Of a stretch of DNA of 64,000 nt, positions 41,989-62,369 are shown one piece after another. Positions within the stretch are counted from its first letter, which is position 1; each line of letters begins with the position of its first letter. The notes beneath the pieces were generated by a model that was given only the letters and a program-made list of their open reading frames with translations, was not told where the DNA came from and did no database searches. Source of the DNA: a virus; IMG/VR virus record IMGVR_UViG_3300049489_000400, positions 34,718 through 98,717 of that record; one strand, 5' to 3'. Made by a program: the position numbers and the translations under genes.

Positions 41989-42022
41989 AAAAAAGGGCAG
42001 GCAGACTATTCCACCTACCCTT
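41989..42022 (-). terminator. rho-independent terminator after MCP
   Basis: Minus strand AAGGGTAGGTGGAATAGTCTGCCTGCCCTTTTTT. Confidence 0.8.
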
Positions 42023-42046
42023 CATAGTTTCACTTTACAATACTAA

Positions 42047-43534
42047 TTAAGCACGTCCGATGTTGATGAAACGAACCATTTTCTTAGGTGCGTACAAGAA
42101 CGGTGTTCCGTACAATAAGATCATGAATCGGTACGCTGGACTCAACAACGCTAAATCCATTTTCATAAGTGGAGCAAGTTGAGCGAATTCAATCACTTCA
42201 TTGTCCATTTGGAAAAGGATAGCTTGATCCATATCAGGCATCATTCGGTTACGGTCACGAACCGCTCCAGCAGCAGCACCATCATATCCAGCTGTAAACT
42301 CTTGTGCAGACACAGTGAATACAGGATAGAAAGTAGCAGCAGCGAAAGAAGCAGCACCTGGATTAGAACGGTAAACTACATAAGAAGTAGCTGGTGTAGA
42401 ACCACCACCGTCAGTAAATGCTAAGTCGATAGCACCTCCAGCAACTACAGCCGCAGCAGCAGCACCGATTTGAACCAAAGTAGATTCACCATATCGGTTT
42501 ACAGAAGCAACAGCGTAGTAGTAAGTACCAGCATCAGTAGCAGCCCACTTAGAAGATGCATCAACAGCAACAGGAGTCAATGAAACAGAAACAACTGGTG
42601 CAGGTGCATTCGGTGATGTAGCTGGTGATACACTAGTACGACTAGGTTTTTTGTTGAAGAAAATATCCCAGTTCAATCCGATACGTCCAAATTGAGAATC
42701 GAATGATTGAACTCGTTGACCCATAATACCGTCAGAAGTTTGAGCAGTATTAGGTTGGATAAATTTGTTTCCGTAGAAACCTTTAACGAAGTCACTCAAT
42801 ACACGTGGTGGAGCGTACAATTGAGTACCTACACCAAAGTTTTGAATAATTCCGTTTGCCCCATCTTCGATAGCTTCTTCAGTCAAAGCAGAACCTCTAA
42901 GGTCAACTACAACTTCTGAGTTAAAGTAAGCATCCAAGTTGATCCAAGCATCATTTCGTTGATGCTGAGCAAGGAATCCGTTAAACTCTTGTGAAACCAA
43001 AGCCTCATCACCGAAATACAAAGAACGGTTCAATTGACGTAGAATCCACATCGTACCATTCTTAATCTCTCGCTCCATGATACTTCCGATGTGAGTGTTA
43101 ACCAATGTCATCGGGTGAGACACAGATTTAACAACCCCCATGAATTTCACTAACTGAGCACGTCTTACGTAAGTACTGTCCTCTTCATTCGGCAACTCTC
43201 CTTCATTGTAGAAACCTCCACGAAGCGCACCATAAGATGTCAACTGGTTGTATTCTTCAACGGTGTTGAATGCAGATTTTTTAGGCAAGTTCTTCCATAG
43301 AACGATTTCTGTTTCTTTGAAAGTCAAGTGTTTCAAAGTCTTATCAAGACTCTCAACTTTCAATGGAGCACCTCCAGCAGTCGTCAAATTGGCTGTTTCT
43401 CTACCAGTAATTTGACCTGCCTCAAGTGCTTTTTGCAACTGGTTCAATTCTTCACTAGAACTGCTACCAATCAAATTCGGCTGGCCATTATTGGCAGCAG
43501 CATTTGCGTAATCAGCTAAATTTAGTCCTTCCAT
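42047..43534 (-). CDS. major capsid protein (Herelleviridae-like HK97 fold)
   Basis: GAPLKVESLD..LK.LTF, TVEEYN, LYFGD, EFNG, VVDLRG, LAPLMKMDLA, LYG.P.LYAPKK. Confidence 0.93.
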   Translation of the reverse strand: MEGLNLADYANAAANNGQPNLIGSSSSEELNQLQKALEAGQITGRETANLTTAGGAPLKVESLDKTLKHLTFKETEIVLWKNLPKKSAFNTVEEYNQLTSYGALRGGFYNEGELPNEEDSTYVRRAQLVKFMGVVKSVSHPMTLVNTHIGSIMEREIKNGTMWILRQLNRSLYFGDEALVSQEFNGFLAQHQRNDAWINLDAYFNSEVVVDLRGSALTEEAIEDGANGIIQNFGVGTQLYAPPRVLSDFVKGFYGNKFIQPNTAQTSDGIMGQRVQSFDSQFGRIGLNWDIFFNKKPSRTSVSPATSPNAPAPVVSVSLTPVAVDASSKWAATDAGTYYYAVASVNRYGESTLVQIGAAAAAVVAGGAIDLAFTDGGGSTPATSYVVYRSNPGAASFAAATFYPVFTVSAQEFTAGYDGAAAGAVRDRNRMMPDMDQAILFQMDNEVIEFAQLAPLMKMDLALLSPAYRFMILLYGTPFLYAPKKMVRFINIGRA

Positions 43535-43585: not shown

Positions 43586-43595
43586 TAATATCTGT
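43586..43595 (-). promoter_or_regulatory. putative late promoter ACAGATATTA upstream of MCP
   Basis: The same CAGNTATTA motif recurs 19-52 nt upstream of eight other structural-region genes. Confidence 0.55.
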
Positions 43596-45091
43596 TAGTC
43601 GACAATACTGATTTGTTTTTCCAATTTTAATCTGTGGATAACATTAATCGGTAATTGTTTCGTTGCTTCGAATGATGTAACAGCATCCCCAAATTCTGCA
43701 TCATAACCCTTCTCAAATGAAGCATTATCGATGATATTCAAGATTTTTGCAGCATCTTTAGATTTGCTCAATACCATAGTTCCGTCATTTGACTTTCTCT
43801 GACCATCTTCACCGAAATTACGCTCAGTAAAGCCTTTAGTGATAGATTTGCGTCCTTGAGTGGAACCTGCCATCTGTTCGATAGTTTCTTGAGCCTTACT
43901 CAATAGTCCTTTAGTCTCAGCTAATTCCTCTTGAGTAGATTTCAATAATCCTCCTTGCTCTTCAATCTTGCCTTTTAGAATTTCTGTCTGTTCCATTTGA
44001 GCTTTAATCAAAGTAGCTAATGCTTTAGATTCTTTAGATTGTTTTTCTACTGAATCATTGATAGCCTTAACAAGTGAATTTTCCTTTTTACCCTTTTCGA
44101 TTTTTGAAGGTGTTGCACCAGTAGCTGGAGAAGCATTGTTTGTAGACAAATCTTTTTTCATTTCGTCCTCATCTTCCTCATCTTCATTTTCTTCGTCCTC
44201 ATCCTCTTCAGGGTCTTCATCTTTTGATCCGAATTGTTGCTTTGTGACATTCTCTGCGATTTCTTCTGCAGACATTTCAGAAACATCTTTGGATTTTTTA
44301 GCCTTTTCGATAAACGGATTATCTTTAAGGTCTAAACCAAGAACATCGATTGCCTTTTCAATATCGGCATCTGTAATCGTTTTACCTATCATTTTCTCTT
44401 GTATTTGAGTGAATAAATTATTTAACTTATCAGCCTTTTCAATACTAATACCTGGATAAGTGTCAAATATTTTGTCGTATCTCTCGTTAGAATCCATCTT
44501 TTTGATTTTGTAACCACCTCTATCAACAGATTCTTTCTTCAAGGCTGAACCGCTTTCTGTAGTCAAAGATTTCTCTTCTTCATCATCTACTAGAACACGT
44601 CCTTTAATAATATCGGCAAATGTTTGAGCATTTTTAGGCATATGAGTTATAGCTAACCCAGTGATGATAGCTTTCTTAACTATCTTAGGATTTTCTTCAT
44701 CTCTTTCAACTACTGTTCCTTCAATTGAATATCCTAAACGTCTTGTTTTAGAATCCAAAGCCATAACTTGAGCAACCTCATATACTTCCTGAGCTAACTT
44801 GGAATTAGGATAAAGATCAGTTTCAACATAAAATCCGTCTTTTCTTATCTCAGCTTTATGAGGCTCACCTATAATAGCAGCAGGACTGTTTTTAGATTGA
44901 TGATGCCAATTAACAACTCCAGATTTTTTAAATTCTGTAATATCAAATCCAGTTGGGTCTAAGAACTCACCGTCAGAATCTTTATCCATTGTAGATGCGA
45001 TTCCTCCTAATCTCATGATCTCATTACCCTCTTTGTCTTTCGCTTTTTGAATGACACCTACAGGACAGAAAAATTTAAAATTGTTGTTCAT
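43595..45091 (-). CDS. prohead protease with fused scaffold domain
   Basis: GIAST...DSDGE, NWHH, LGYSIEG, AIT..PKN; acidic/coiled-coil C-terminal half. Confidence 0.9.
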   Translation of the reverse strand: MNNNFKFFCPVGVIQKAKDKEGNEIMRLGGIASTMDKDSDGEFLDPTGFDITEFKKSGVVNWHHQSKNSPAAIIGEPHKAEIRKDGFYVETDLYPNSKLAQEVYEVAQVMALDSKTRRLGYSIEGTVVERDEENPKIVKKAIITGLAITHMPKNAQTFADIIKGRVLVDDEEEKSLTTESGSALKKESVDRGGYKIKKMDSNERYDKIFDTYPGISIEKADKLNNLFTQIQEKMIGKTITDADIEKAIDVLGLDLKDNPFIEKAKKSKDVSEMSAEEIAENVTKQQFGSKDEDPEEDEDEENEDEEDEDEMKKDLSTNNASPATGATPSKIEKGKKENSLVKAINDSVEKQSKESKALATLIKAQMEQTEILKGKIEEQGGLLKSTQEELAETKGLLSKAQETIEQMAGSTQGRKSITKGFTERNFGEDGQRKSNDGTMVLSKSKDAAKILNIIDNASFEKGYDAEFGDAVTSFEATKQLPINVIHRLKLEKQISIVD

Positions 45092-45123: not shown

Positions 45124-45534
45124 TTACAATTCTAATACTCCAATATCCATTTTGTTTAAGAATAGCCAATCGTATACAATATCAAGTTTATCTTTTTTAT
45201 CCTTTTCGATAAAATCTTTTTGAGATATACTTTTAGACATCAAATACTTTCTGAAGGATTCATTTAAGACATGAATCTGCTCAGCCTTCATAACTACAGA
45301 TTTAATTGACTTAGGTAAATCGTCAAAATAAAGTTCTTTGGAAATTTGCTTAGAGAATGAAGAATAGTCTAAGTCGCTAACCAGTGGAAATTCACCATTT
45401 TTAAATGGCAACAATCTATCTGCTTCTTTATCTGCTAAAGTCCTAGATATTTTACCTACTCTGACGTCTGCCAGCTTGTTTCGTTGTCTTTGAGATTCAA
45501 TACTCAAACCTTCTTCATTAACAAAATATTCCAT
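45124..45534 (-). CDS. hypothetical head-module protein
   Basis: 136 aa directly before the protease. Confidence 0.6.
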   Translation of the reverse strand: MEYFVNEEGLSIESQRQRNKLADVRVGKISRTLADKEADRLLPFKNGEFPLVSDLDYSSFSKQISKELYFDDLPKSIKSVVMKAEQIHVLNESFRKYLMSKSISQKDFIEKDKKDKLDIVYDWLFLNKMDIGVLEL

Positions 45535-45537
45535 AAT

Positions 45538-47814
45538 TTATTTTTTACGAACAAGACACTTACTTCTATTTATAATTACGGCAAAATCTGTATTCCCACC
45601 CCAACCATTCTTTTGAATAATAGCATCATAACCCTTTATTGCAGCATAGAATCCTCTTGCTTCACCACCTGTCCTACTAGCTATATCAGCCATTATCTTA
45701 CTAACACTAGAACTTCCATTTGTTTTAACCTTATTGAGCTCATGTGTTATTTTGTCTAATATGTCTTTGTTTTCTTTGATTTCATTTTTGATATCAATCA
45801 TTTCTTTGCTAGACTTCTTATCAGATGTTATTCTCTCTTTAATTGTGTCGTTTATTTTAGCGAAATGATTTTGAACAAGATGTTCATTCAAATACTTATA
45901 GTGAAGATTGTAAGCTATGTGTTGAGAATTTTTCAATTTCATATCACTTCTTTGCGCTATACCTTCATTCAATATAAATTTCTCAGTAGTATGAGGCAAT
46001 GTTATTTCATAAGTTTGATTGTTTATTTTTTTAACATCTCCTGCTAATTTTTTAACTATTCCTGTGTAATATTCTACAGCTTTGCTAAATTTGTTCTTTT
46101 TCAAGTCAGCTAACTTTTCATAAGAATAATTCCCTGGTAAGCCTTGAACATTATTCAATTCATCGAAAGTGTCTTCATCCCATCCCATTTTCTCTTTAGT
46201 GGTTTGTTCGATTTTCTTTTCGATTTCATCTTGTTTCTTTTCTAAATCGTAAACTGTTTGTTTTGCGTCATCATATTTATTTTTGAGTTCCTTGAATTCA
46301 GAACCAAAAAATTCTTCAGACATCATAGAATCTAATTCGTCTGTATAGATAACCTTTGCATCTGAAGGTATGCATATATCCATAACGCCAGTATCTTTAT
46401 AACCAGCGTATTCGTATGCTATTTGGTAATCGTGATTTGGTGGTGGAGGATTTTTCTTAGGCTTGTTTACAGCGCCATAAATACCTGCACCATACATACC
46501 TACTCTACCATAAAAGCAGTCTTCATTTTCAGTAAAGTCCTTTAGAAGTTCTTGAGCTGTTCTTCCATTGAATCCTTGAACACCTCTATTAACCATAAAT
46601 GCCCCATCTTCAGAAATAGCCTTTTCAAAAGTCTGATCATCTACTTCAGTAGCAACTTTGTCAAAACCTCTTAATTTACAAATATTTGATAAGAAGTTCC
46701 AACCGTGAGTATTATCACTGTTCCACATACCTCCAGCGTCAGACAATGCCTTTTCCATCTCTTTTTCGCTTAATTCTCGGTATGGGTCTTTAGATTCGTC
46801 TAAATCCTCCAATCTGAGTTCTAAACTAGCGAATCTATTATGCATTTTCAAATTCAAATCATCATCCTCAATCATAGACAAAATAATGTCTTTCTTTTTA
46901 AGGATTTTTTTGATTTGTTTATTTATGTCTTTCTGAGTCAGTCCAGAAGTCATTTGTATGTTATTGGAAACCATAGATTCCAATTCATTAACCTCATCTT
47001 CAAAATGATTACCCTTATCTCTACCTTGAGCAGAAAACCTTAAAGAACCGCCATTATCTACACGATAAATTTTACCATCGTCCTTATTGATAAGTATATT
47101 GTCATTCTTGTATGCATCCCAATTAGCCAAAAGACAATCAGCTACGAAATTATTCAATATATCCTTACGAATATCATCTGTAAGATTTGAATTAGCAACC
47201 TCCGTATTAGGCATATACTCAGATAAGATGAGTGATCCAGATTTTGACTTGTAAAGTTTCATATTTGGAACACTTATTCCTAAGCAGGAATATATGGAAT
47301 TAGCAAGATATTCTTCTTCAACATGAGCTGCTGAAGCACCTTTTTTCATTACGTACTCCTTACCAGTATTCTTGTCTTTAACAAGTTGAGCACCAGTAGA
47401 ACCTCCTAAAGATTTAACTATCTCAATATCTGATAGACTCGGAAAATTTTCTGTATCAAAGAAGTCTTCTGGGCTTGCTGATTTACTGGATGAATCTTTC
47501 TTGTCCTTGTTTACAACTTTTCTCCAATCTAGTTTTCCAGAAGGGGTCATCTTAACAACATAAGTTATTCCGTTCTTAACTTTCGTTTGACCTAGTTGTA
47601 ATGCTTTCATTAATTCTTGATCAGGAATTAAACCGTTCAAGGAATCGTGAAAAGTTTTTGATTTGATAATTTCATAATTATCATCTGGAGAAAAGTTGAT
47701 TGCTTTCGAGAAATTATCAAAAGCATTAATCAACGTTTCGTCATCTACCTCTCCTTTGAAATTAGCTACCGCTACAACATTGAGAGACTTTTTCAATCTT
47801 TCAAAATTGTCCAT
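45538..47814 (-). CDS. HipA/PI3K-like protein kinase fused to an ADP-ribosyltransferase-like domain
   Basis: Kinase: LGGSTGA, YVMKK, EYLAN.IY, LLANWD..NDNIL, RVDNGGSL. ART: VNRGV, GMYGAGIY, AYEYA, GYDAI. Confidence 0.7.
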   Translation of the reverse strand: MDNFERLKKSLNVVAVANFKGEVDDETLINAFDNFSKAINFSPDDNYEIIKSKTFHDSLNGLIPDQELMKALQLGQTKVKNGITYVVKMTPSGKLDWRKVVNKDKKDSSSKSASPEDFFDTENFPSLSDIEIVKSLGGSTGAQLVKDKNTGKEYVMKKGASAAHVEEEYLANSIYSCLGISVPNMKLYKSKSGSLILSEYMPNTEVANSNLTDDIRKDILNNFVADCLLANWDAYKNDNILINKDDGKIYRVDNGGSLRFSAQGRDKGNHFEDEVNELESMVSNNIQMTSGLTQKDINKQIKKILKKKDIILSMIEDDDLNLKMHNRFASLELRLEDLDESKDPYRELSEKEMEKALSDAGGMWNSDNTHGWNFLSNICKLRGFDKVATEVDDQTFEKAISEDGAFMVNRGVQGFNGRTAQELLKDFTENEDCFYGRVGMYGAGIYGAVNKPKKNPPPPNHDYQIAYEYAGYKDTGVMDICIPSDAKVIYTDELDSMMSEEFFGSEFKELKNKYDDAKQTVYDLEKKQDEIEKKIEQTTKEKMGWDEDTFDELNNVQGLPGNYSYEKLADLKKNKFSKAVEYYTGIVKKLAGDVKKINNQTYEITLPHTTEKFILNEGIAQRSDMKLKNSQHIAYNLHYKYLNEHLVQNHFAKINDTIKERITSDKKSSKEMIDIKNEIKENKDILDKITHELNKVKTNGSSSVSKIMADIASRTGGEARGFYAAIKGYDAIIQKNGWGGNTDFAVIINRSKCLVRKK

Positions 47815-49259
47815 TATTTAAGCAAATCAAGTGTCTCTAAAGCCTTTTCTAAACTCATTCCAATCTCTGGTTTGATACCTTTCACTATGAATTTTTCAAC
47901 TTCTTTTTCCCAATCTTCTTCGTCACCGAAAAGCATTTTACCCATAACAGGGTCATCTTGAATCATCTTGTTAGCATTATCAATACTTCTCTTAGTTTCG
48001 ATAGCTTCTTTGAATGTTCTAGTGTTGAATTTTTGAGGGTCTATACTGTCAATATTATCGGCAAGTATCTTGAATACAGCATCTCTCTCTTTTATATCCT
48101 CCTGTTTGTCATCCAATCTAGGAACTCCAGTAAAGTTCATTTGATGCTTCAACTTGTCTACAAAATGAAGTTTTTCTCTTTTTGTAAATTGTATATCTTT
48201 TTTGATGGCTCTCGAATAGATTGCATTCATATGTTCATCTTTCGTAAAGTCGTCTTGATTCATGTTTGTAATCAAAAGAATCTGGCCAGTAAACTCAAAA
48301 GGATCAACATTTGAAGCTTTGTTTGTACTTTTCTTACCAACTATCCTTTTACCAGAAGACGCAGTTGCCTTCTTGAACAAACCTCTAATTTCAGGATTCT
48401 TTATAACCATATCCGAATCATCGAATACGATAGTTTTACCATTATGTTCTTGAAGTAATTTTGCAAACTGAGGAACTGAGTCAACTTCTGGAGCCTCAAA
48501 ATAGTCGTAATCGCCATCACCTGGTTGGTCTGTCTCTGGATCAAAAGGTTTTTTACCCATATACTTAGCCACAGCGTGGAAGTTATAAGACTTACCTACC
48601 CCAGCACCTCCAGAAGCAATCATCAATGGAGAACCTCCCTTTAAAAACTGCGCATACGTCTTATTCAAGACAGTAACCTCTTTTTCAGGTGGCTGGTAAT
48701 CAGGGTCATTTATTTTAAGATTATGTATATAATCATCCATTTCAATACGGTCTTTCTTAGTCTTTCCGTTATTGAATTTCTTTTTGATGTTATCTACATC
48801 TTGCCAGTTTTTAGCTTCATCCTCGTCAGAATCTGTATTCTTAGAAGTTGGTGCTGCAGGTGGTTTTTTACCATCTCCATCTCCAAACATTTCTTTTGCT
48901 TGTTTCATTTTTCCTGTATTCAGGTCAATGTCTGAAACATCTTCTCCACGCTCTTTCAACTCGTCATAAGCCATCTGTCTAAGACTTGGATCATTGTTTG
49001 GATTAGTTGCAAATGAAACTAATTTATCATTAGTTGTTTTCTTCAAATGTGCTTGAAGCTTCCCAGCTTTAGTAGTTGGAGTCTGTTCTTCATCGTCACC
49101 TCCTGAATCAGGCTTAGAATCTTTATTTGAAGAACCGGTTGATTTAACCTTTCGCCAGTCAAATTTACCACTAGAAAGTTGAGTCCACACTCTAGTTATA
49201 CCATCTTTACCGACTTTGGTTTCTCCAACCTGTCTAGCCTTCTCAATATTTTTGTTCAT
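47814..49259 (-). CDS. AAA-type ATPase with shared N-terminal module
   Basis: Walker A SGGAGVGKS, Walker B IVFDDSD, ITN sensor, AIYSR arginine finger. Confidence 0.8.
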   Translation of the reverse strand: MNKNIEKARQVGETKVGKDGITRVWTQLSSGKFDWRKVKSTGSSNKDSKPDSGGDDEEQTPTTKAGKLQAHLKKTTNDKLVSFATNPNNDPSLRQMAYDELKERGEDVSDIDLNTGKMKQAKEMFGDGDGKKPPAAPTSKNTDSDEDEAKNWQDVDNIKKKFNNGKTKKDRIEMDDYIHNLKINDPDYQPPEKEVTVLNKTYAQFLKGGSPLMIASGGAGVGKSYNFHAVAKYMGKKPFDPETDQPGDGDYDYFEAPEVDSVPQFAKLLQEHNGKTIVFDDSDMVIKNPEIRGLFKKATASSGKRIVGKKSTNKASNVDPFEFTGQILLITNMNQDDFTKDEHMNAIYSRAIKKDIQFTKREKLHFVDKLKHQMNFTGVPRLDDKQEDIKERDAVFKILADNIDSIDPQKFNTRTFKEAIETKRSIDNANKMIQDDPVMGKMLFGDEEDWEKEVEKFIVKGIKPEIGMSLEKALETLDLLK

Positions 49260-49294: not shown

Positions 49295-49304
49295 TAATAT
49301 CTGT
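49295..49304 (-). promoter_or_regulatory. putative late promoter ACAGATATTA
   Basis: Recurrent motif 36 nt upstream of the ATPase ATG. Confidence 0.5.
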
Positions 49305-50734
49305 TATTCAGTCCAATCTATTGGAAGTTCTACGTTGAAAAATTTAGTCATTACTTCTTCTGAATCTTTCAAAACCTTAGCTGAATTTTTACCCACTTCT
49401 AATTCTTTCAATCTGTTTTTATAGAATGCGATATCAATTACATCTTGCATATTATTTATTGGATCAAATAACATTTTAGCTAATCTGAAATTATGCTTAA
49501 CATCTTTTCTATATTGCTCATCTGACATTTTTTTAGCCTTATTCAAAGCCTCAGCGAATTGTTTAGGTGTTGCATCCCAAGGTATGAATATAGCTTTCAA
49601 TTCATCGTAAATTATGTCATCTATTTTACCCTTTTGTTTAACAAGACCTTTTGTGTCTCTCAAAACTGGATATGAACCGTTTATTATGGCTTCTATGGTG
49701 AAACCATTAAGGTGAGTATTTGAATATTGCGCATAATGTTTACTGAATGATGGGTCAATACAAAATTTAGAATTTTGCTGCATAAAATAAACATCGGAAC
49801 TTGACATGAATCCTTGATGCTCTAATCCGTACATTTCGGCTCTCTCCCAAAGACTCATACCTATATGCTCATCTAAACAATCAGGGTCAGTCTTTTTACT
49901 AACCATATATCTAGGTTTTTGTTTACCTCCTTCAGCGTCAGCCATCATATAATAAAGTTCTATCCCAGAACCAGCTGTAAATACAGTACTGCCCTTTTTC
50001 AAATGAGGAGTCATGGCTAATATGTCTTCCATCTTTTTCATAGATTTGAAAACATGAGCAGCGAAAAAATCAACTGGTCTTTCAGACATAGCCTTATAAG
50101 GTAATTTATCAGGCATATATCTTGAAGCGAAATTCAAGTATCTAGGAATAGCAATATTTTCACAACAATTATAGGCTGATGTATGTACACAGTCTAGGTA
50201 AGTTATTTTAGGTGCTAAATATCTAACCCAGCTTGTTCTAATGTCGTAATATCCGTCATGAACAGCAAAAACTTGTTTTATCCTTTTAGGTAAATCGAAA
50301 AATTTTGGCCAATCATGAAATCCTTTAGCTTCTTTAGTTTTAGTAGGCATAAAACTCCAAAACAATAAATCCGCATCCATTACAGCTTCATGCCATAATT
50401 CTAAAGCATTTTCTGCAAAAACAGGAATACGATTTGTATATGGAGGAAGAAACCAACCATAATAGGAATTTTTCCAGTAACCAGTAACTTCTGATTTCTC
50501 AAAACCTCCGTGTTGACTCTTATTGCTTTGTTTCGCTTGGAATACACCATCTTCAAATTCTTTTATTCTACGATGATATAAATCGACTGATATAGTCTTA
50601 TTATAAGTCAAAAATATAATGTCGACATCATGTCCCATTTCTTTAAAAGCCTTGACACGACCTTCAACATTTTGAACTATACCGCCATACTTTGCGACAT
50701 CAAAAGTACAAATTCTAATCTTTAACTTTTTCAT
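49304..50734 (-). CDS. GT-B fold glycosyltransferase
   Basis: YGGI...GHDVDII N-terminus, K.ME, G.G.E, FTIEAI..G..PV; ATG start at 50734. Confidence 0.8.
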   Translation of the reverse strand: MKKLKIRICTFDVAKYGGIVQNVEGRVKAFKEMGHDVDIIFLTYNKTISVDLYHRRIKEFEDGVFQAKQSNKSQHGGFEKSEVTGYWKNSYYGWFLPPYTNRIPVFAENALELWHEAVMDADLLFWSFMPTKTKEAKGFHDWPKFFDLPKRIKQVFAVHDGYYDIRTSWVRYLAPKITYLDCVHTSAYNCCENIAIPRYLNFASRYMPDKLPYKAMSERPVDFFAAHVFKSMKKMEDILAMTPHLKKGSTVFTAGSGIELYYMMADAEGGKQKPRYMVSKKTDPDCLDEHIGMSLWERAEMYGLEHQGFMSSSDVYFMQQNSKFCIDPSFSKHYAQYSNTHLNGFTIEAIINGSYPVLRDTKGLVKQKGKIDDIIYDELKAIFIPWDATPKQFAEALNKAKKMSDEQYRKDVKHNFRLAKMLFDPINNMQDVIDIAFYKNRLKELEVGKNSAKVLKDSEEVMTKFFNVELPIDWTE

Positions 50735-51401
50735 AATACTCTTCTGGTAACATCTTCTTAATATAACCCTGCTCAAAGAACAATAATGAACTTTGGGATT
50801 TATAGAAGTCCTTTACAAATTGAAATTTATTCGCTCCATCCTCTTCTTTGAGTCCTGTCAATTCATGAACTTGTTTCAACTTGAATTCAGAATTAGTTAA
50901 GCCTACAAAATACTCTTTATTTCTTCTTTTGTATGAATGAGGGAAATCACGGTAGAATAAGTGTGAGTGTTTTTCAGTTAAATTTCTAACTAACCAATGA
51001 AATGGATGACCTACTCCTAAACAAGTTACAATCAAGAATCCATCATCTGACAATACTTCAAGAATCCCATCTAATTCTGAAGCTAGTTTCAGCATTTTAT
51101 TTTCTCCTATTTTCATAAGGCAAAAACTCATAGCTGAATCATCCGACATCAGTTTTTTATCAGAATAGTATTCTTTATGAAAATTTTCAGAACTTACTTT
51201 AGTCCTAAGAGTGAAAAGCTCCATGTCGAACTCTTCGCAAAGTAATCTGTCTTCTTCAAGTCTTTTTTCGTTGTACTCTACGGTCAACATTATAACTTGA
51301 TCATATTTGTCTCTTTCTTTCAAGAAGTTAGCCGCACTAAAGATGATATCATCTGAATGGGGCTGAATCAAAAGCAAATTTCGCTTTTTATTTTTAGCCA
51401 T
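50715..51401 (-). CDS. PIG-L/LmbE-family de-N-acetylase
   Basis: LLIQPHSDD, R..ED, GVGHPFH, FYRDFPHS, YKSQ. Confidence 0.8.
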   Translation of the reverse strand: MAKNKKRNLLLIQPHSDDIIFSAANFLKERDKYDQVIMLTVEYNEKRLEEDRLLCEEFDMELFTLRTKVSSENFHKEYYSDKKLMSDDSAMSFCLMKIGENKMLKLASELDGILEVLSDDGFLIVTCLGVGHPFHWLVRNLTEKHSHLFYRDFPHSYKRRNKEYFVGLTNSEFKLKQVHELTGLKEEDGANKFQFVKDFYKSQSSLLFFEQGYIKKMLPEEYYEKVKD

Positions 51402-51411
51402 ATGAAAAATT

Positions 51412-52314
51412 TTACGGTGTTATAGTAACTTTAACCTTGGAAGTTCTTTTTACTCCTTGAGTATTTCTTTTAATTACAAATCTCTTCAAGTCATCATCCC
51501 ATTCGCTATTTTCAGGAACCACATGAAGTATAGACCTTGCCCAAGGGTGAGCTGGGCCAACAACTGGTTCTTGATCTTTCTTTCCTATGTTATTACCATT
51601 AGCAATCAAGTCCTTTAATTTATATATTATCGGCTTTTCACCTGGAACCCCATAATTTTTTAAACACTGTTTGCAAACTCCTGGGAACGTCTGTTTGTAA
51701 ACTTGAGCGTCATCTCCATAATCTTCAAGTATTTGTTGCGCTCTTCCAAACCCATATGCTTCTTGAAGTATATAATTTGATATCCTGGAAAAATCTCTGG
51801 CCCAGTCTTCAGTAATTCTTTTCAATTCAGATGCTAGCCAAGCTTGACTTTTTCGGTCTTTGAAAGCCTTGATAGATTCTGTTTTGATTTTATCAGCAAT
51901 TTCCAATCTCTGCTTTTGATTAGCCATCAAAATTGTATTAGAAAAATTATTAGCAACTTTGTTTCCTAGACCAGATAAATCAATGAATGCTCTATTTTTT
52001 AAATGGTCTAGTCCAGCCTTTTGAGAAATACTCTTAGGTTGATTTAATCTTTTAGTAAACCATTTGTCGAATATCTTATTGTTTACTTTGTATGACTTAT
52101 TTCCACCTAAAGATTGAGCCATCATTCCGAAATAATAGGACTTGTCTATTTCAGACATAACATCTTCAAAATCTTCTGTATTTATACCTAATGCTTGCAA
52201 CATTATTATGTCTGAAGGAGACAAATACTCTAGTCCTAATTGACTACCGATAAATACAGCTTGATTTCTCTTGATAATGTCTATCATCTGCCATATTTGC
52301 TCCAATGTAAACAT
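51412..52314 (-). CDS. MuF-like minor head (morphogenesis) protein
   Basis: DW.RD..RI, CKQC, P.HPW.RS (variant of HP.CRC). Confidence 0.7.
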   Translation of the reverse strand: MFTLEQIWQMIDIIKRNQAVFIGSQLGLEYLSPSDIIMLQALGINTEDFEDVMSEIDKSYYFGMMAQSLGGNKSYKVNNKIFDKWFTKRLNQPKSISQKAGLDHLKNRAFIDLSGLGNKVANNFSNTILMANQKQRLEIADKIKTESIKAFKDRKSQAWLASELKRITEDWARDFSRISNYILQEAYGFGRAQQILEDYGDDAQVYKQTFPGVCKQCLKNYGVPGEKPIIYKLKDLIANGNNIGKKDQEPVVGPAHPWARSILHVVPENSEWDDDLKRFVIKRNTQGVKRTSKVKVTITP

Positions 52315-54858: not shown

Positions 54859-57474
54859 TTATTCTTTTGGAACTGTTAATGAAGAAATTACTTGGTAATC
54901 AGAAAAATCTGGCACTGCTGTTGCTCCAAGTGGTTTATTTCCGTAACTACCAACTAACGTAATTAACGAAGGAGGTGCTGCATTTTCCATAAATTCAGAT
55001 GATGCTCCATTAGCTTCTCCCAAGCAATTATAGAATTGAGCATTTTTACTTAGTGTTGGTTGATCATTTTGCCAAGATATATTAGGAGCAGTAGGATAAG
55101 TAACTCCGTCAGCGTAATTATAAAAACTACAATTCTTAAATGTGTGTTTTCTACTGACCCCAAGAATATTAGCGTACCCTTGAATTCTACCATTATTTAT
55201 ATCAATATTTGAATCGTATGGAGTTCCTGCAGTATTTCCTAAATATGTATTTATAGGACTTGTATTAGATATCAAATCACCATTTACTTTAAGATTCACA
55301 TACCATCCTACATATCCAGTCAAAATGCAATTCTGATCATTACCGTATAAATTTCCATTTATAACAATCTTTGTTTGAGCAGTATATTGATTAACTAAGT
55401 TTATCAAACCTCTGTAATCTCCAGACACACCTCCTGAGTGAACTATTCTGATATCAGGGCAATTTAATTCAACATAGCAAGCACCTGCTGGGCCAGTAGT
55501 CAATACACATTTATATATATTTCCGTATGTAGAAGTATAAGCTGGTAATACCCATAATCTTGGTGAATGAACTACTAATCTTCCAGCGAATGGTTGAACA
55601 GAACCATTTCTCAAGAAGAACATGACATGCTGAGAATATATGTACTCTCTTGCCGTCACAGTAACATCACATCTGTCTGTTATTCTGAAACCATATCCTC
55701 CACCATTCATTCCACTCAATCTTGCACGATTGAACTTAACTCTAACAATTGGTGTGAAGTTAAGATTCAACATACCTGCACAATCCGCTGAATCGAATTC
55801 AAGATCAACTTCTCCATCTGAACTCATATTGAATATCCAAGATTGAGATTGAAAATGAGCGAATCCATAAAATTTAGTATATTGACCAATGAGTATGTTA
55901 GAAGCATTTATTTGTCCAAAATATATAACTACTCCTGGCTCACAATAAATATGAACATCCGTTATTAAATTTATACTAGAAGTGTACAATCCTTTTCTTA
56001 GCACTACTAGACCAGGATTCAATGAAGATGCTGAACCAGTTACTGCTGATTGTGCGGCAGATATGGACTGGAATGGTTTGGTAAAATCACCTGCTAATCC
56101 TGTCGCATCTGAACCGTTATACAAATCAACAAAAGCTACATCAGAATAATTAACTCCTCCGCCTGCTGCATTAACAATAAAAGTTCTTTCACCGCCAATT
56201 ATAACTTCTTGAACAGTTACATTAGTTCCACCTATTACATTTCCTGCAGCTGTAGATTGCACTGTTCCATCTGAGAAGGTAATCTTGCAAGGTTCAGTTA
56301 CATCCACCTCTTGTCTAGTGTAAGCAAATCCTCCACCATTCGCCCCTTGAGTCCAAGAGGAAAATAAGAACTTATGATATTTATCTGTAGAAAGATCATG
56401 CATAATTAGTTCTAAACCTAATATGTTTAAACCAACAGCATTATTTAAAGCTGTGACAAAATCAGAATAAACTCTCGATTTTATGTCAAATAAATTTCCA
56501 AACCCATTCTTAACAGGGTCTGTAAAAACAGAATTCCATTCTGTATTAGCTGGCGAACCTAATTGGTATCCTAATTCTACTGCTGAATTGAATATACTTT
56601 GAGAAGTTCCTCTATTTATTTCAGTTTGTCCTGGCTCTATCGCATCCACTTCAGAACCATAATCAGTATGGGTGAAATTTATTTCTTCTCCTAATATCAA
56701 TTCTAATGGCTTCATTGTTATGTCGCAGTTGCAACCGCAATCACCATCTTCACAACAACTCTCTGGAGCCAGCCTGAAATTGAATATTCTGAAATCTATC
56801 ACTTCAGTACCTGAAGGTGATAAAGAATTTACAAGTCTTATAACCATAGTATGGCTAGAAACAGTTCCATTTACTGCTGTAACTGTAGCTTTGATCAGAC
56901 CTGAAATATCAGATTGATTATAAGATATTATTGTTGCACCTGTTCCATTACCAAAACTAATTTCTACACTTGAATTAGGATTAGTGAATAATGATGGGTC
57001 GAATTTAAGCTCAAAACAATAGTTTAAACCACTCTGAAGTAAGTTACCGTCAGAATCTTTAAAAAATGGTATTGTCATAATGTCTCCATTATAATTATTG
57101 ACTCCTTCAGCATCGTTTTGAAATGCTAATATCGAATCATTAGTAAATACGCCATTATTCCAAGTCCATCTGTTTCCTAATTCTGTTCTGTGATAATCAT
57201 ACCATTCACAACCTCCGCACCCGCAATCTTCTTCACACCCATAAGTCCACTCTGTAAAGTGAGTTGGGAATAAAGCACTATTTACGTCTAGTTCTATTGG
57301 TGAAACAAATATAGATTGATAACATCTTGTTATACCATCTATATTCCCACTATTGTCTTTGTCAATATATTTGGATATATTGGTTCCTTGGCTATCTGAT
57401 GCATATCTAACATAAGTGAAATTTCCACCTCCGTTACCTCCGCAATTACCTGTACAATTTCCTCCGCAACACAT
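54859..57474 (-). CDS. Cys-rich fibre/spike with C-terminal beta-helix (depolymerase-like)
   Basis: FVD..NGSD..G...PFQSISAA onset of a pectin-lyase-like domain; YVRYASD repeat; ITFSDGTVQSTA. Confidence 0.65.
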   Translation of the reverse strand: MCCGGNCTGNCGGNGGGNFTYVRYASDSQGTNISKYIDKDNSGNIDGITRCYQSIFVSPIELDVNSALFPTHFTEWTYGCEEDCGCGGCEWYDYHRTELGNRWTWNNGVFTNDSILAFQNDAEGVNNYNGDIMTIPFFKDSDGNLLQSGLNYCFELKFDPSLFTNPNSSVEISFGNGTGATIISYNQSDISGLIKATVTAVNGTVSSHTMVIRLVNSLSPSGTEVIDFRIFNFRLAPESCCEDGDCGCNCDITMKPLELILGEEINFTHTDYGSEVDAIEPGQTEINRGTSQSIFNSAVELGYQLGSPANTEWNSVFTDPVKNGFGNLFDIKSRVYSDFVTALNNAVGLNILGLELIMHDLSTDKYHKFLFSSWTQGANGGGFAYTRQEVDVTEPCKITFSDGTVQSTAAGNVIGGTNVTVQEVIIGGERTFIVNAAGGGVNYSDVAFVDLYNGSDATGLAGDFTKPFQSISAAQSAVTGSASSLNPGLVVLRKGLYTSSINLITDVHIYCEPGVVIYFGQINASNILIGQYTKFYGFAHFQSQSWIFNMSSDGEVDLEFDSADCAGMLNLNFTPIVRVKFNRARLSGMNGGGYGFRITDRCDVTVTAREYIYSQHVMFFLRNGSVQPFAGRLVVHSPRLWVLPAYTSTYGNIYKCVLTTGPAGACYVELNCPDIRIVHSGGVSGDYRGLINLVNQYTAQTKIVINGNLYGNDQNCILTGYVGWYVNLKVNGDLISNTSPINTYLGNTAGTPYDSNIDINNGRIQGYANILGVSRKHTFKNCSFYNYADGVTYPTAPNISWQNDQPTLSKNAQFYNCLGEANGASSEFMENAAPPSLITLVGSYGNKPLGATAVPDFSDYQVISSLTVPKE

Positions 57475-57485
57475 GTTTTAATTTA

Positions 57486-59015
57486 TTAAGGATTTTCTAA
57501 TGTTGTGATTCTTCTTTCGTGATCAACCACTTGTGTTCCTAAGTCGCTTATTCCTGAGTTCATAGGTACAAGTTGATCATCCACATATTTCCTGTTATCA
57601 GCAAGATTTGTATCTATATAATCGAGGTCAGCTACTCTGTCTGGATCATAAGTCTCAGATTTGAAATTCGATATTTCTTGTTGTGCTACTTTTCTCAAAC
57701 CTCCATCTATCCTTAGAAGGATAGCATCGGCAGAACTTTCTGATTCTAAATTACCAACCTGCTCATCGAGTATTACAGCTGTATTAGTTAAATTATCTAA
57801 AGATTCTTGGAAAGAATTTATAGCTTCATTTAACAATTTTTCTAAATTTCCTATTCTCAGGTTTGCATTTTCACAACACTCTACTAATTGAGATTGAAGA
57901 TTAGAAATTTCATTTGTTAAATTATTTATTTGCTGATTATAGATAGCAATTTGATCTTGAAGTAACTCATTAAGATTTGTAATCTGTTGTTCTAATAAAT
58001 CAAATTTGCCGTCGCAATCGCAACTAGAATTAGAATCACAACAAATCTTAATCCACTTGTTAGCGAACAACTCTGGAGTTAGAACTTCAATCGGTGTAGG
58101 TGAAGTTATTATTCCGAAATAACATCTACAAAGAAAACATTGACCTTCTATCTCCTCAGCGCAACATTCTTTAGTTCCTACTTGTATAGTCATAGTAGAA
58201 TTTATGAGTGCCTGGCCATTATTAGGAACGTTAATAATAAGTTGAGAACCTTGATTCTGAATAAGTTGCTCTGCACCAGTTGTTGGTCCATTAAGATTTA
58301 TTGTTTCAGTAGGAACTCCTAAACTGATTTCCATTTCTCCTGTAAATGAAGGTAAAGTATTCACTGAAACACAATAATCTATCAGGTCATTCAAAAGGAC
58401 AGAACCAGGCATGAAAACATTAAGAACAAGTTGTTGACCTGGTGCTACATTCACTAACTCAATTTCAACACCATTTCCAGTATTTGAAACTTGAAAACTA
58501 GAATTGCCACTATCAACTAAAAAGGTATCCGCATATTGACAAGCATTACAATCTACTTCGTATTGCATTTCTGTTCCGAAATTGGTTCCGTTACAATCAT
58601 CTGCAAAAGCAATATAAGTATAATTTCCAGAACCTTCTGTTCCACCACATTTACAAAACTTAGTCCATCTTTTTTCAAACAACTCTGGCAATAAATCCAT
58701 CGTAGGTATAGACATACTAGAAGTAATGACAGCCCAAAAACAATGATCATCTGGATCAAATGATAAGCTGAAATTTCCACCTTCACAAGTTGATGCAAAA
58801 GCTATATATGTATATATGCCGTTAATCGTAGCACCTGTTCCTAAAGGTAACCAATCAGCAGCAATTACATCATAGTAATAATGAACCTTAGCTGGTCCAG
58901 TAGTATAAGGATTTGTAGAATCATTATACCACAATATCTTAGTGTTTAAAGGTGGATTCACTCCTACATGAATCGCCTTTATTAAACCAAGATTTTTCGT
59001 TCCTATTGGAGGCAT
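57486..59015 (-). CDS. Cys-rich fibre protein with C-terminal coiled coil
   Basis: YTYIAFA repeats; C-terminal DHERRITTLE coiled coil. Confidence 0.6.
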   Translation of the reverse strand: MPPIGTKNLGLIKAIHVGVNPPLNTKILWYNDSTNPYTTGPAKVHYYYDVIAADWLPLGTGATINGIYTYIAFASTCEGGNFSLSFDPDDHCFWAVITSSMSIPTMDLLPELFEKRWTKFCKCGGTEGSGNYTYIAFADDCNGTNFGTEMQYEVDCNACQYADTFLVDSGNSSFQVSNTGNGVEIELVNVAPGQQLVLNVFMPGSVLLNDLIDYCVSVNTLPSFTGEMEISLGVPTETINLNGPTTGAEQLIQNQGSQLIINVPNNGQALINSTMTIQVGTKECCAEEIEGQCFLCRCYFGIITSPTPIEVLTPELFANKWIKICCDSNSSCDCDGKFDLLEQQITNLNELLQDQIAIYNQQINNLTNEISNLQSQLVECCENANLRIGNLEKLLNEAINSFQESLDNLTNTAVILDEQVGNLESESSADAILLRIDGGLRKVAQQEISNFKSETYDPDRVADLDYIDTNLADNRKYVDDQLVPMNSGISDLGTQVVDHERRITTLENP

Positions 59016-59020
59016 ATCTT

Positions 59021-60616
59021 TTATTTAATTAAATTAGACATAAATGACTTAACAAATGGATTCTCTTCTTCTGAATCTGAGTCATCCCAATTCAAGAAAG
59101 GATTAGTTCCATCATCGTCATTGTTCGTTGGGATTCCGCCACCTGCTAATCCAGCTTCCTGCTGTGCTTGCATAGAAAGTTGTTGAGCGTAAGTAGGATT
59201 GAGTATTAAATCCCCACCTTTAACAGGGTCTAATCCGTATTTACTTCTTATCTCGTTAACTGTTTGGAAGTTAGACAATTTCTTGATTTCAATATCAAGT
59301 TCCTCTTGAATTGTCAATCCATTCAGACCAACAAAATGGAACTCATATTCAGGATCAATTTGAGTAACTACATACTTGTTCATTTTTCTCTGAATGAACT
59401 TCAATAGTGGATACAATCCTTTATCTTTAGAATGTTTTAATCTTTGTTCGTTACTACCTTCGAACATAGAAGAACTCCCCTGACCAGCACTAATGTTAAA
59501 TCCAATTTCGTTAGGGTCTATAGCATAAATAGCACAAGCAATTTTTATCAAGTATTCAGACCAGCTTCCATACTCCATATCTCGGTTTGATTTTTGTAAA
59601 TCAATCCAATCTATATCAGCATCTACAATCGGTGTTTTCCAAGATTGCTGCACGCCAGTAACCATAGACAACCACTCTTGTCTAAAAGCCTTTAATTGTT
59701 TCTCATTAACATTACCTTTTACTCTCAATAAACCTTTAGGAGCAGAACCCTGACTAAAGAATCTCTTGTTATATTCTTCAGCCCATAACATAGAAGTCAC
59801 AGTACTTACTAATTCCTCTAATTCAGAACAACCATAACCTACGTTATAAAGATTTGAAGATGGATTTCTAACACCAAAGCAAAGTTCCCAAGGGTAAAAA
59901 TCAGCAGTTACAGAACCTTGATAAATTTGAACAAATGATGGGTAATATCCTTTAACCATTTCTTTGTCTTCTTTATCGTACTCATCATCATCATATGAAT
60001 CGGCAACTCTATAAGTAGATGCATCTGTAGCAAAGAACTCAAACAATTTACCTCTTCTGTCCCTAACTACCTCAAATGTCATTTGATCATAAGTCAAACT
60101 GTCATCTACAATTTTTCTTATAAATGATTCAAAGTCGTCACCCTCCCAAGAGTTGTTAATACCGCAGTTTAAAACTATCTCTGTTATCTCTTCGATTCTA
60201 CGCCACTCTTCAGTAGTATTTTCCCTGTCCTTCTCACCTAATCTCTTTTTCTTACGAATAACGAATCCAGTTGAGTAACGGTCAGCCTGCGGCTCAGCAA
60301 AGTCAGCAATCTGATTCTTTCTAGTTTTTAAAATAGCATTAATAATCGGTGTTTTAGACATTCTTTTCAAAGTCTGATAAGACAGAGAAAATGGCTTATC
60401 CTTATAACCGAAACTATTTTGAAAATCTAAAGGGTCAATTATGTAACTCTTTTTGTTACCCTCTTTTCTTTCTTCTATATTCTCAAGAACTTTTTGAGCA
60501 CGTAAAATATCGTTGGGTGAATTAGACGACAAAGCCTTCTCCAGAACAAGACCTTTTTTTAGTTCAAGCTTGTTCTGAAGAAGTTCTAATTTGTCTATTT
60601 TATTTGCGTAACCCAT
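59021..60616 (-). CDS. portal protein (Herelleviridae-like)
   Basis: INAI..TR.NQI, DSLTYDQ, VRNP...GYG.SELE, FFSQG..PKGLL, DMEY, IDP.EIG, TVNEIR. Confidence 0.92.
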   Translation of the reverse strand: MGYANKIDKLELLQNKLELKKGLVLEKALSSNSPNDILRAQKVLENIEERKEGNKKSYIIDPLDFQNSFGYKDKPFSLSYQTLKRMSKTPIINAILKTRKNQIADFAEPQADRYSTGFVIRKKKRLGEKDRENTTEEWRRIEEITEIVLNCGINNSWEGDDFESFIRKIVDDSLTYDQMTFEVVRDRRGKLFEFFATDASTYRVADSYDDDEYDKEDKEMVKGYYPSFVQIYQGSVTADFYPWELCFGVRNPSSNLYNVGYGCSELEELVSTVTSMLWAEEYNKRFFSQGSAPKGLLRVKGNVNEKQLKAFRQEWLSMVTGVQQSWKTPIVDADIDWIDLQKSNRDMEYGSWSEYLIKIACAIYAIDPNEIGFNISAGQGSSSMFEGSNEQRLKHSKDKGLYPLLKFIQRKMNKYVVTQIDPEYEFHFVGLNGLTIQEELDIEIKKLSNFQTVNEIRSKYGLDPVKGGDLILNPTYAQQLSMQAQQEAGLAGGGIPTNNDDDGTNPFLNWDDSDSEEENPFVKSFMSNLIK

Positions 60617-60650: not shown

Positions 60651-62369
60651 TTAGATCACTTGTTCGTACTCTGAAACATCCTCTCCTCTTTCTTTTAACT
60701 CATCAATAGCTATTTGTCTTGAAGTGTGGGTTTTCATCTTAGCAATCGCCTTCAATGTTTGTACAGGAGCATTTTTAGCCATCTTTTTCAATTCATCTTG
60801 ACTAAATTTTGAATCCTTAGAATCAACAACTTCATCCTCATCATCTTCTCCAGATAAGAAATTTTCCATTTCATCTTTGAAATCAGAATCGGGATTCTCG
60901 TCAAGATATTTTTGAACTTGTTCTTTACTTAATTCTAAACCTCCACTGGCCCATTCTCCAATTTTATCCTCGTCTAAATCTTCAGAACTTGCACCATCCT
61001 CATCTTTCCCGTCACCATCGTCGTCATGACCATCGTTGTCTTGCTCCTTTTCTAAGTCTTTCAACTCTTTCTTTTGCTTGACTGCTTCCTCTTTGTCGTC
61101 TTCGTGAGAATCTGATTCTAAAGTATCAACTAAGTCTTTATGCTCATTAACTAAATCTTTGGTGTCTTCGGTGGTTTTTCCAGGCTCTTCTTCAGATTGA
61201 TCTTTCTCAGAACCTTCTGAATTAGATTCCTCCATATCAAAGAAAAATTCCTCTAATGCACTATCATTCTCATAGCTAACACTACTATTTTCATTTGTTA
61301 TTCCGTAGTTAACCTTTTTAACGAAATCATCAACATCATTCGCTGATTCGTACATTTGCATCAAGAAATCATTCCCGACTTCATTCCCATCTTCATCAAC
61401 AATTCCGTAACTATTTGTGTCTTCTGAAAAATCAGGCTTGCCCCTATCTTCAGAACCTTCATCAGATGATCCAGGATGACCTGTTTTCTCTTTCAATGCA
61501 TCTAAAGCAGCTTGAGCACCGTCAATAGCAGCGTGAGTTTCGGAATGATCAGTTTTGTTAGATTCATGCATCTTTAAGGCTTGAGCTGGAGTTATTCCGT
61601 TCTCAATTGCTGAATCAATAATAGCTTCTCTGTCTGGATGAGAAGCAAGTGCGTTCTTAACAGATTCTGGATCATTGAAATCAATTCCTCCTTCATCTTC
61701 AGAATCAAGTTCACCTCTTTTCTGCAATTCTGCTTTTGCTTCTGCTGCCCCAGGTGCGTTAGGATTCTTTTGTAGAAACGCTTTTAATTGCTCGCTATCC
61801 GTACCTGCCGCATGTGAAGCATATTCTTCAGTACTAAGTTCTCTGTTGATCAAAGATTCTTTTTGTCCTGAATCTTTTTCACTAGAAACTTCAGGATTTT
61901 TATCTTTCGACTCAGTTCCTTCCTCAGCCTTTGGAGTTTTGTCTTGCTTTTCGTCGTCCTTATTGGCTCTTACCCATTTAGTGGTATTTCGACCAGTCTT
62001 ATCGGTTATTTGTTTTTTAACCAACCCCTGCTTTCCTCCTCCACCTGATGAGCCATCAAAGTCCATATGTCCTTTTTCTACGTAAAAATACATATTCTGA
62101 ACATATCCGTTCTCATCAATAACTTCTCTACAAGACAAGCTATTTAGAACCTCTTTGGCTTTTTGTATATCATTCTCATTACCCTTAGTCAATACGTCTT
62201 TAGTGTATTTTTCAAGATTTTCAACTGTATACAAAGGCTCGTCACCTAATGATTTACGAAGGTCTTCAATAGGAAGTGGCGCCGTTCCCGACACCTCTTT
62301 AAATCCCTTTAGAATATTCAATCTTTGATTAAATTGAAATTCATGTATCTGTTCGATATTCTTACTCAT
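60651..62369 (-). CDS. acidic putative internal head protein
   Basis: Multiple xKA/S/G sites, LVKKQITDKTG..TTKWVR module, ELKERGEDVS repeat. Confidence 0.6.
   Translation of the reverse strand: MSKNIEQIHEFQFNQRLNILKGFKEVSGTAPLPIEDLRKSLGDEPLYTVENLEKYTKDVLTKGNENDIQKAKEVLNSLSCREVIDENGYVQNMYFYVEKGHMDFDGSSGGGGKQGLVKKQITDKTGRNTTKWVRANKDDEKQDKTPKAEEGTESKDKNPEVSSEKDSGQKESLINRELSTEEYASHAAGTDSEQLKAFLQKNPNAPGAAEAKAELQKRGELDSEDEGGIDFNDPESVKNALASHPDREAIIDSAIENGITPAQALKMHESNKTDHSETHAAIDGAQAALDALKEKTGHPGSSDEGSEDRGKPDFSEDTNSYGIVDEDGNEVGNDFLMQMYESANDVDDFVKKVNYGITNENSSVSYENDSALEEFFFDMEESNSEGSEKDQSEEEPGKTTEDTKDLVNEHKDLVDTLESDSHEDDKEEAVKQKKELKDLEKEQDNDGHDDDGDGKDEDGASSEDLDEDKIGEWASGGLELSKEQVQKYLDENPDSDFKDEMENFLSGEDDEDEVVDSKDSKFSQDELKKMAKNAPVQTLKAIAKMKTHTSRQIAIDELKERGEDVSEYEQVI

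Follow-up and report, generated by a model that had tools for sequence, protein, structure and literature searches.

The DNA analysed here (the window) is a stretch of 64,000 nucleotides, positions 34718–98717 of the 98.7-kb viral genome held as IMG/VR record IMGVR_UViG_3300049489_000400, a single contig. All genes of the window lie on the minus strand. Between the portal gene and the major capsid gene lie two genes, one for a P-loop ATPase of 481 amino acid residues (aa) and one for a 758-aa protein with a kinase-like domain and a candidate ADP-ribosyltransferase (ART), and the products of both carry, near the N-terminus, copies of one small module. The original prediction, which was made from the letters of the window, described this module as an element of about 33 aa shared by two unrelated enzymes and proposed that it belongs to a tag-plus-cargo system for packaging and injecting effectors. 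The module, its relatives, and its probable role are analyzed below. Coordinates of the features are collected in Table 1; those prefixed L001 or C1 are in whole-genome numbering.

In the ATPase, the module comprises residues 4–38 and reads NIEK-A..VGETKV..GITRVW..GKFDWRKV (copy 1); in the 758-aa protein it comprises residues 67–100 (copy 2). When the whole proteins are compared by BLASTP, residues 5–38 of the ATPase align with residues 68–100 of the 758-aa protein (20 identities in 34 positions, expect value (E) 5e-7), and no second significant similarity is found. The original prediction thus placed the shared element correctly, its length being 34–35 residues, and was right in calling the fused enzymes unrelated: a single BLASTP segment joins them, and one is a Walker-motif ATPase, whereas the other has a protein-kinase-like fold. 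A hidden Markov model (HMM) built from the two sequences and run against all open reading frames (ORFs) of the 98.7-kb genome found a third copy, in a 188-aa protein encoded outside the window (E 6e-21); the next ORF scores E 0.16. The gene for the 188-aa protein lies directly downstream of the large terminase gene and ahead of a NUDIX gene. All three copies start with hydrophobic-x-K-A, and a low-complexity linker comes next, as predicted for the first two. One N-terminal element sits on three otherwise unrelated proteins of this genome, and related contigs have up to five module genes.

The 572-aa protein encoded upstream of the portal was said to have a looser analogue of the module after VEKG. 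This is unsupported at that place, because the module HMM gives E 54. Instead, residues 3–43 of the 572-aa protein match the leader helix of the module family (..RLNILK-GF..; E 0.0028 among 131 proteins), so that this protein has the leader without the beta module. Five K-[AGS] motifs lie within its first 100 residues.

The HMM of the module and the catalogue of fused domains, which had been put forward as a check, yielded 459 protein clusters with varied C-termini, as follows. The profile used (A3) consists of 13 sequences from this genome and five IMG/VR loci and has 35 positions. Run against 1.84 billion representative proteins, it matches 459 clusters at E ≤ 1e-3, of which 147 reach E ≤ 1e-10. 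The ten clusters that were looked up contain metagenomic sequences only. Of the 156 members fetched, 117 have a module that starts at residues 20–39, and 12 have one that starts among the first 10 residues. Members typically open with a leader helix (..R..V..NI.K[GSA]F); a spacer of 10–15 residues then leads to the module, a basic low-complexity linker, and a variable C-terminus. The consensus of the module is [LIF]-E-K-A-H-x-V-G-D-x-H-P-N-G-K-W-V-W-T-Q-L-P-S-G-K-F-D-W-R. The C-termini of at least 80 residues, present in 142 proteins, fall into 52 BLAST clusters, the largest of which (72 proteins) is chained through a second common domain of about 90 residues. This second domain, W..W.RFQ.TGD....KKFP....W...IDL.G..L.KLQ.FMDKC, follows the linker, precedes further variable sequence, and belongs to no known family; it is found in P0062 and about 70 other members, including those at L005:11977–13227 and L007:9767–10510. 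A word-based search recovered close relatives only, yet these already combine the same N-terminus with very different C-termini.

The module has no match in Pfam (E ≤ 10), NCBIfam, or PHROGs, and a search of the ESM Atlas with the N-terminal 70 residues gave no usable match. Comparison of the module profile with PDB sequences gave only look-alikes among PQQ/beta-propeller hairpins, at E 0.0055 or weaker; the same hairpin likeness explains three repeat-protein matches in the large search (P0018, P0052, and P0074). With blastn and tblastn against 50,697 phage records, the module was not found outside this lineage, and among 185,579 prokaryote species genomes it is carried by two contigs alone, both from Prevotellaceae metagenome-assembled genomes (MAGs). 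On a Prevotella MAG contig (L029:9908–11666), two module copies stand in tandem, split by a frameshift or an assembly break; a 226-aa protein encoded nearby contains a domain resembling CdiA C-terminal toxins (E 8e-5), and genes for an HNH endonuclease and a C5 DNA methylase lie beside it. On these profile and database comparisons, the module is a real, portable, and previously undescribed domain.

Structural information comes from an AlphaFold2 model of the 188-aa protein, made with a 99-sequence alignment. The leader helix is predicted at residues 2–22, with a predicted local distance difference test score (pLDDT) of about 90, and three strands are predicted at residues 48–50, 56–61, and 67–71 (pLDDT 89–95); the remainder of the protein is of low confidence. 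A Foldseek search of the model against the PDB and BFVD returned nothing at E ≤ 0.001, and the fold is therefore assigned to no recognized family. The module is thus modeled as a minimal beta domain, in which a short K-A segment is followed by a three-stranded sheet. The top Foldseek rows are small sheets of the chromo, Tudor, WW, and Cren7 types.

The weak resemblance to Cren7, chromo, and Tudor sheets brings up a DNA-binding role, in which the module, acting as Sso7d, Cren7, or chromo domains do, would bring its enzymes to modified DNA of a thymine hypermodification pathway or let them ride on the DNA. Such a role would suit the basic stretch after the module, the genes for a glycosyltransferase, a deacetylase, and aGPT that are interspersed nearby, and the presence in this genome of a module-free paralogue of the ATPase. 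Several results make DNA binding improbable all the same. The fold matches have E values of 0.4 or worse. The glycosyltransferase, the deacetylase, and aGPT are themselves without the module when examined with the module HMM, and the cargo of the family includes protein-directed domains, namely a kinase, peptidases, and ClpS. The ATPase family is unrelated by tblastn to proteins of ViI, SP10, phiW-14, and M6-type phages. Finally, DNA binding does not account for the conserved N-terminal leader and its sites. Separately, a role for the ATPase as the 5-hydroxymethyl-dU DNA kinase of hypermodification was rejected, there being no tblastn link to the phages just named.

Where the module genes lie is highly regular. 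In the IMG/VR loci whose flanking genes could be recognized, they are always in the head/packaging region, either after the large terminase gene or between the portal and capsid genes. The order is constant, as follows: portal, 509-aa gene, one to three variable module genes, 300-aa gene, deacetylase, glycosyltransferase, module-ATPase, module-kinase, 136-aa gene, protease-scaffold, and capsid protein. The clade of the present phage differs in that the variable module gene is placed after the large terminase gene, and one contig holds five module genes. Variable C-terminal domains together with a location in the packaging module, the combination used to recognize MuF-type systems, are both found here.

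Table 1. Features of the head gene block and other features of the genome discussed in the text (window numbering unless prefixed L001).
Feature	Positions	Strand	Remark
572-aa protein	60651-62369	-	upstream of the portal
Leader-helix match in the 572-aa protein (residues 3-43)	62241-62363	-	
Portal protein	59021-60616	-	upstream end of the head block holding the module genes
509-aa protein	57486-59015	-	
871-aa protein	54859-57474	-	
Several small genes, including lysis genes	between the 871-aa and 300-aa genes	-	
300-aa protein	51412-52314	-	
Deacetylase and glycosyltransferase	49304-51401	-	
481-aa P-loop ATPase	47814-49259	-	module-bearing
Module copy 1 (ATPase)	49146-49250	-	
C-terminal peptide of the ATPase	47814-47858	-	
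758-aa kinase-ART protein (ART as a lead only)	45538-47814	-	module-bearing
Module copy 2 (758-aa protein)	47515-47616	-	
136-aa protein	45124-45534	-	function not assigned; kinase and protease genes flank it in every case
Prohead protease fused to a scaffold-like region (498 aa)	43595-45091	-	phrog_1028
Major capsid protein	42047-43534	-	SPO1-like
Strong intrinsic-terminator-like hairpin	41992-42023	-	directly 3' of the capsid gene
188-aa protein	L001:6878-7444	-	module copy 3; outside the window
281-aa protein	L001:4239-5084		outside the window
324-aa module-free paralogue of the ATPase	L001:1027-2001		

The ATPase, kinase, and 136-aa genes overlap or abut. In the 41.5–55 kb stretch that was scanned, the hairpin directly past the capsid gene is the sole strong terminator. 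Because no strong terminator precedes it, the gene arrangement makes it likely that the module genes are co-expressed with the head proteins. The capsid protein also points to the source of the DNA. It matches the solved SPO1 gp6.1 at E 3e-75 and is 48% identical to the capsid proteins of Bacteroides phages DAC16-23 and 41% identical to that of Chryseobacterium phage MA9V-3; because of these resemblances, the source is taken, by homology, to be an uncultured myophage of Bacteroidota. As to the 300-aa neighbor, a MuF-like identity was ruled out, since Pfam is negative at E ≤ 1, and the protein has no Pfam family. A longer homologue (L018:5742–7778) contains an intein with Hint domains and a DUF559 endonuclease, and the 715-aa homologues on L022 and L023 have no family match.

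In every locus the glycosyltransferase and deacetylase pair adjoins module genes. This adjacency, and an arrangement of anchor, Ser/Thr/Pro/Lys-rich linker, and variable globular end that is much like that of decoration proteins, would fit a module that anchors proteins on the capsid exterior, the linker, perhaps glycosylated by the neighboring transferase, holding variable display domains outward as in T5 pb10 and T4 Hoc. Such an external anchor is highly improbable. Both conserved cargoes depend on ATP or NAD and could serve no purpose outside a cell, the N-terminal protease-type sites make sense only inside a prohead, and no Ig-like or lectin domains were found in the cargo.

The cargo proteins are considered next. 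Walker A (GGAGVGKS) and Walker B-like (IVFDDSD) motifs are present in the ATPase, which matches phrog_1250. The protein consists of a 7-residue N-terminal peptide, the module, an acidic/low-complexity linker, and the phrog_1250 ATPase. The module-free paralogue, also of phrog_1250, scores E 2e-52; the module-bearing copy is more diverged (E 5e-15).

The 758-aa protein has an N-terminal region of about 66 residues, then the module, a linker, the kinase at residues 127–342, and the candidate ART, which is split by long helices. In a model of this protein made with nine homologues, residues 127–342 match Helicobacter pylori CtkA (VIA Z 12.8, root-mean-square deviation 3.8 over 192 residues; Foldseek E 3e-4) and also match actin-fragmin kinase (AFK), CotH, PI4K-II, and HipA. 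The modeled segment clearly has a CtkA/AFK/CotH-like kinase fold. For the C-terminal part, the nearest neighbors in the ESM Atlas are ART-PolyVal (score 0.82), DUF3990, and models of MuF-fused minor capsid proteins (template modeling score, TM, 0.25–0.40), all of which serve as leads only; the candidate ART has conserved R410-G411 and G442-x-G444-x-Y446. Thus, of the kinase-ART identity originally proposed, the kinase half is upheld by its fold, and the ART half is kept as a lead from the Atlas. Felix O1-like and Gordonia phages also have the kinase-like domain, in proteins annotated as ADP-ribosyltransferases, so that the kinase-ART pairing is not confined to this lineage. Were the ART borne out, a kinase and an ART joined in one polypeptide encoded beside virion genes would be an arrangement of the kind defined for polyvalent-protein effectors (Iyer et al. 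2017).

Among the other cargo, Pfam and PHROGs identify a single Peptidase_M90, a ClpS, and a lethal-factor-like peptidase, as well as an N-terminal DUF6496 in five members, and recognize almost none of the remainder. Effectors that are believed to enter the host along with phage DNA typically include kinases and ARTs of this sort (PMC5512222). By analogy, the cargo types, i.e., the CtkA/HipA-like kinase, the lead-level ART, the peptidases, and ClpS, would fit injected effectors.

Copies of the module within one phage resemble each other. The module of the present ATPase is 77% identical in protein sequence to that of the 188-aa protein encoded in the same genome, versus at most 63% to the ATPase modules of other phages. 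Recent gene conversion as the cause of the likeness was ruled out, as the two copies are 71% identical in DNA, with 15 synonymous versus 8 non-synonymous codon differences. In this clade, the first hairpin of the module is long in the ATPase copy as well as in the variable-gene copy, whereas in other clades both copies have a short one; the kinase copy has its own form of the first hairpin. The co-variation fits, from these alignments, a binding partner that is shared within the same phage.

Any shared partner would account for such co-variation, and the partner could also be a cytoplasmic hub of the host or the phage, e.g., RNA polymerase, the ribosome, the clamp, or the membrane, on which the module would dock phage enzymes that never enter the virion. 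In its small beta fold and its invariant W, D, K, and G, the module is much like peptide- or protein-binding domains, and packaging of the module proteins is itself a prediction. Still, a cytoplasmic adaptor appears unlikely. The module genes lie in the late head block and are apparently co-transcribed with the protease and capsid genes, a timing that is odd for takeover enzymes unless they are kept for use in the following host cell. The module occurs with a single lineage of portal and capsid proteins. In addition, an adaptor does not account for the strictness with which the module keeps to the N-terminus or for the pairs of K-A/G/S sites, which are described next.

At the start of the module, K is found in 156 of 156 members and A in 152; the position two before K holds L, I, F, or V in 155, and E fills the intervening position in 134. 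A second hydrophobic-x-K-[AGS] motif lies 6–35 residues upstream in 136 of the 138 members that have at least 20 upstream residues. Past the module, the density of the motif falls to the background (0.37 per 100 residues). In this genome, [ILMV]xK[AGS] occurs at a mean of 0.49 per 100 residues, versus 2.8 in the protease-scaffold, which has 14 sites, or 16 when F is allowed at the first position. The 16 compare with 3.2 in shuffles, likewise with F allowed, an excess of about fivefold (p ≤ 0.0005), and 11 of the 14 are kept in a homologue of 47% identity. The 758-aa kinase protein also has an excess of motifs (10 versus 4.4 in shuffles, p = 0.009).

The capsid protein has a similar site, LQK-ALEAGQITGR at residues 33–45. 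Five relatives and MA9V-3 share the L[QN]K-A junction but not the 30 residues ahead of it, which vary, and SPO1 gp6.1 has ALNK-ALEAG at the aligned position. Residues 33–45 are thus likely, by sequence comparison, to be a propeptide junction; the literature looked at contains no measured capsid-protein cleavage site for SPO1-like phages. Taken together, the motifs fit a prohead protease that would cut after Lys in hydrophobic-x-K followed by A, G, or S. They are not proof of cleavage at Lys, because I-E-K-A is also an ordinary helix pattern. If cutting does take place at K-A, the leader would be removed and the module would therefore stay on the cargo.

Two further proteins display the motif. 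The 281-aa protein, which is conserved beside the portal region in relatives, has 7–8 hydrophobic-x-K-[AGS] motifs (8 versus 1.5 expected, p ≤ 0.0005), seven of them in the first 130 residues, making it a candidate for a heavily processed head protein. The C-terminus of the ATPase reads LEK-ALETLDLLK (LEKALETLDLLK), and the ATPase homologues show the pattern hydrophobic-[EQ]-K-A-hydrophobic-x-x-L; similar endings are found in most of the ATPase homologues and in one variable-cargo protein (P0013). This C-terminal peptide could represent a second site or, alternatively, a helix for docking.

We propose that the module is a capsid-addressing domain for cargo that is carried inside the head and injected, a reading of the genes to which we give an even chance of being right. 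The steps that we infer would be as follows. The cargo, the protease-scaffold, and the capsid protein would all be made from the late operon. The module, with the leader where there is one, would bind a conserved partner in the assembling core, which might be the scaffold region, the portal, or the inner capsid surface. The prohead protease would then trim the N-terminus at hydrophobic-x-K followed by A, G, or S, so that the leader is lost and the module is kept on the cargo. The cargo would remain beside the DNA in the filled head and pass with it into the next host, where the kinase-ART protein, the ATPase, and the variable cargoes would act early, in host takeover or counter-defence. As an architecture, the tag-plus-cargo system of the original prediction is borne out by the 459 clusters, the synteny with head genes, the K-A site, and the terminator past the capsid gene; packaging and ejection of the cargo are proposals, and the tag would, unlike that of T4, be retained.

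Several points weigh against a capsid-addressing domain. All members are metagenomic, and both virion presence and cleavage are predictions from the genes. The head block also holds probably non-structural genes, the glycosyltransferase and deacetylase, which makes position by itself weak evidence. The hydrophobic-x-K-A motif is low in information and is also a common helix or coiled-coil pattern, so that K-A could be part of the fold instead of a cut site, and no cleavage-like motif lies between the module and the cargo, unlike in T4. The chromo, Tudor, WW, and Cren7 matches of the model are generic and are equally compatible with DNA or peptide binding, and the co-variation rests on essentially one clade-level change. 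Lastly, an enzyme of 87 kDa would have to unfold for passage through the tail.

A bolder form of the capsid-addressing proposal is that the K-A beta module, with or without the leader, is a new structured domain for capsid loading that travels with the DNA and is kept on the mature protein, and that the at least 450 clusters make up a little-explored injected arsenal for takeover and counter-defence in Bacteroidota phages, including gut Prevotellaceae phages. This form is offered tentatively, as possible but rather doubtful. Were the capsid-addressing proposal right, the HMM would be a sequence handle for the proteins injected by a large group of uncultured Bacteroidota phages, almost none of which have a known family. 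The module would also be a candidate tag for loading chosen proteins into marine and gut Bacteroidota phages, and the specificity of this lineage's prohead protease would be predicted to be after Lys in hydrophobic-x-K followed by A, G, or S. It would follow, too, that the T4-style solution of one address for many cargoes arose in another structural form, folded and retained.

How does such a capsid-addressing domain compare with known systems? In T4, the capsid-targeting sequence (CTS) is the first 10 residues and is cut off on maturation (PMC9026906); it sits on the diverse internal proteins IPI, IPII, IPIII, and Alt (PMC3012670, PMC9026906), of which Alt is a head-packaged ART with a 7-residue propeptide (PMC9026906). 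The module is like the T4 CTS in being a common N-terminal element on unrelated, fast-changing proteins, one of which has a lead-level ART as cargo, to set beside Alt. The N-terminal peptide of the ATPase, at 7 residues, equals the Alt propeptide in length. In both systems, a motif with a hydrophobic P3 and a charged P1 marks the element and resembles the sites in the scaffold and at the capsid junction. The T4 CTS consists of 10 unstructured residues and is cut after Glu (L/I-x-E), whereas the module is a folded domain of about 35 residues with a candidate Lys at P1 that precedes the domain, which would be retained. There is no sequence similarity to T4, and the protease, which is joined to the scaffold in one protein, belongs to a different type (phrog_1028).

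Head-loaded enzymes are also known from phage P1 Dar and from the ejection proteins of phiKZ/SPN3US-type phages, where, as here, large ATPase/helicase-type enzymes are involved (PMC9024508, PMC10052503). In the giant phages, the head-loaded enzymes are processed by the prohead protease, which cuts after Glu (PMC9024508, PMC10052503), whereas Lys is the candidate here. Unlike the present family, the P1 Dar and phiKZ-type systems have no single portable domain common to all cargo.

The MuF polymorphic toxins and the MuF- or portal-fused effectors resemble the module proteins in that a conserved head-associated N-terminus is joined to a variable effector at the C-terminus and the genes belong to the packaging module (PMC5576092, PMC5512222), and ART-PolyVal-type ARTs and kinases are among their typical cargoes. 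The MuF domain (PF04233) was not found with Pfam in the three module proteins of this genome or in 130 family members. The addressing part here is ten times smaller than MuF, and, while MuF systems belong to temperate phages of Firmicutes, the phages here are lytic-type myophages of Bacteroidota. In outline, then, the module family resembles both the T4 CTS and the MuF toxins and is a member of neither.

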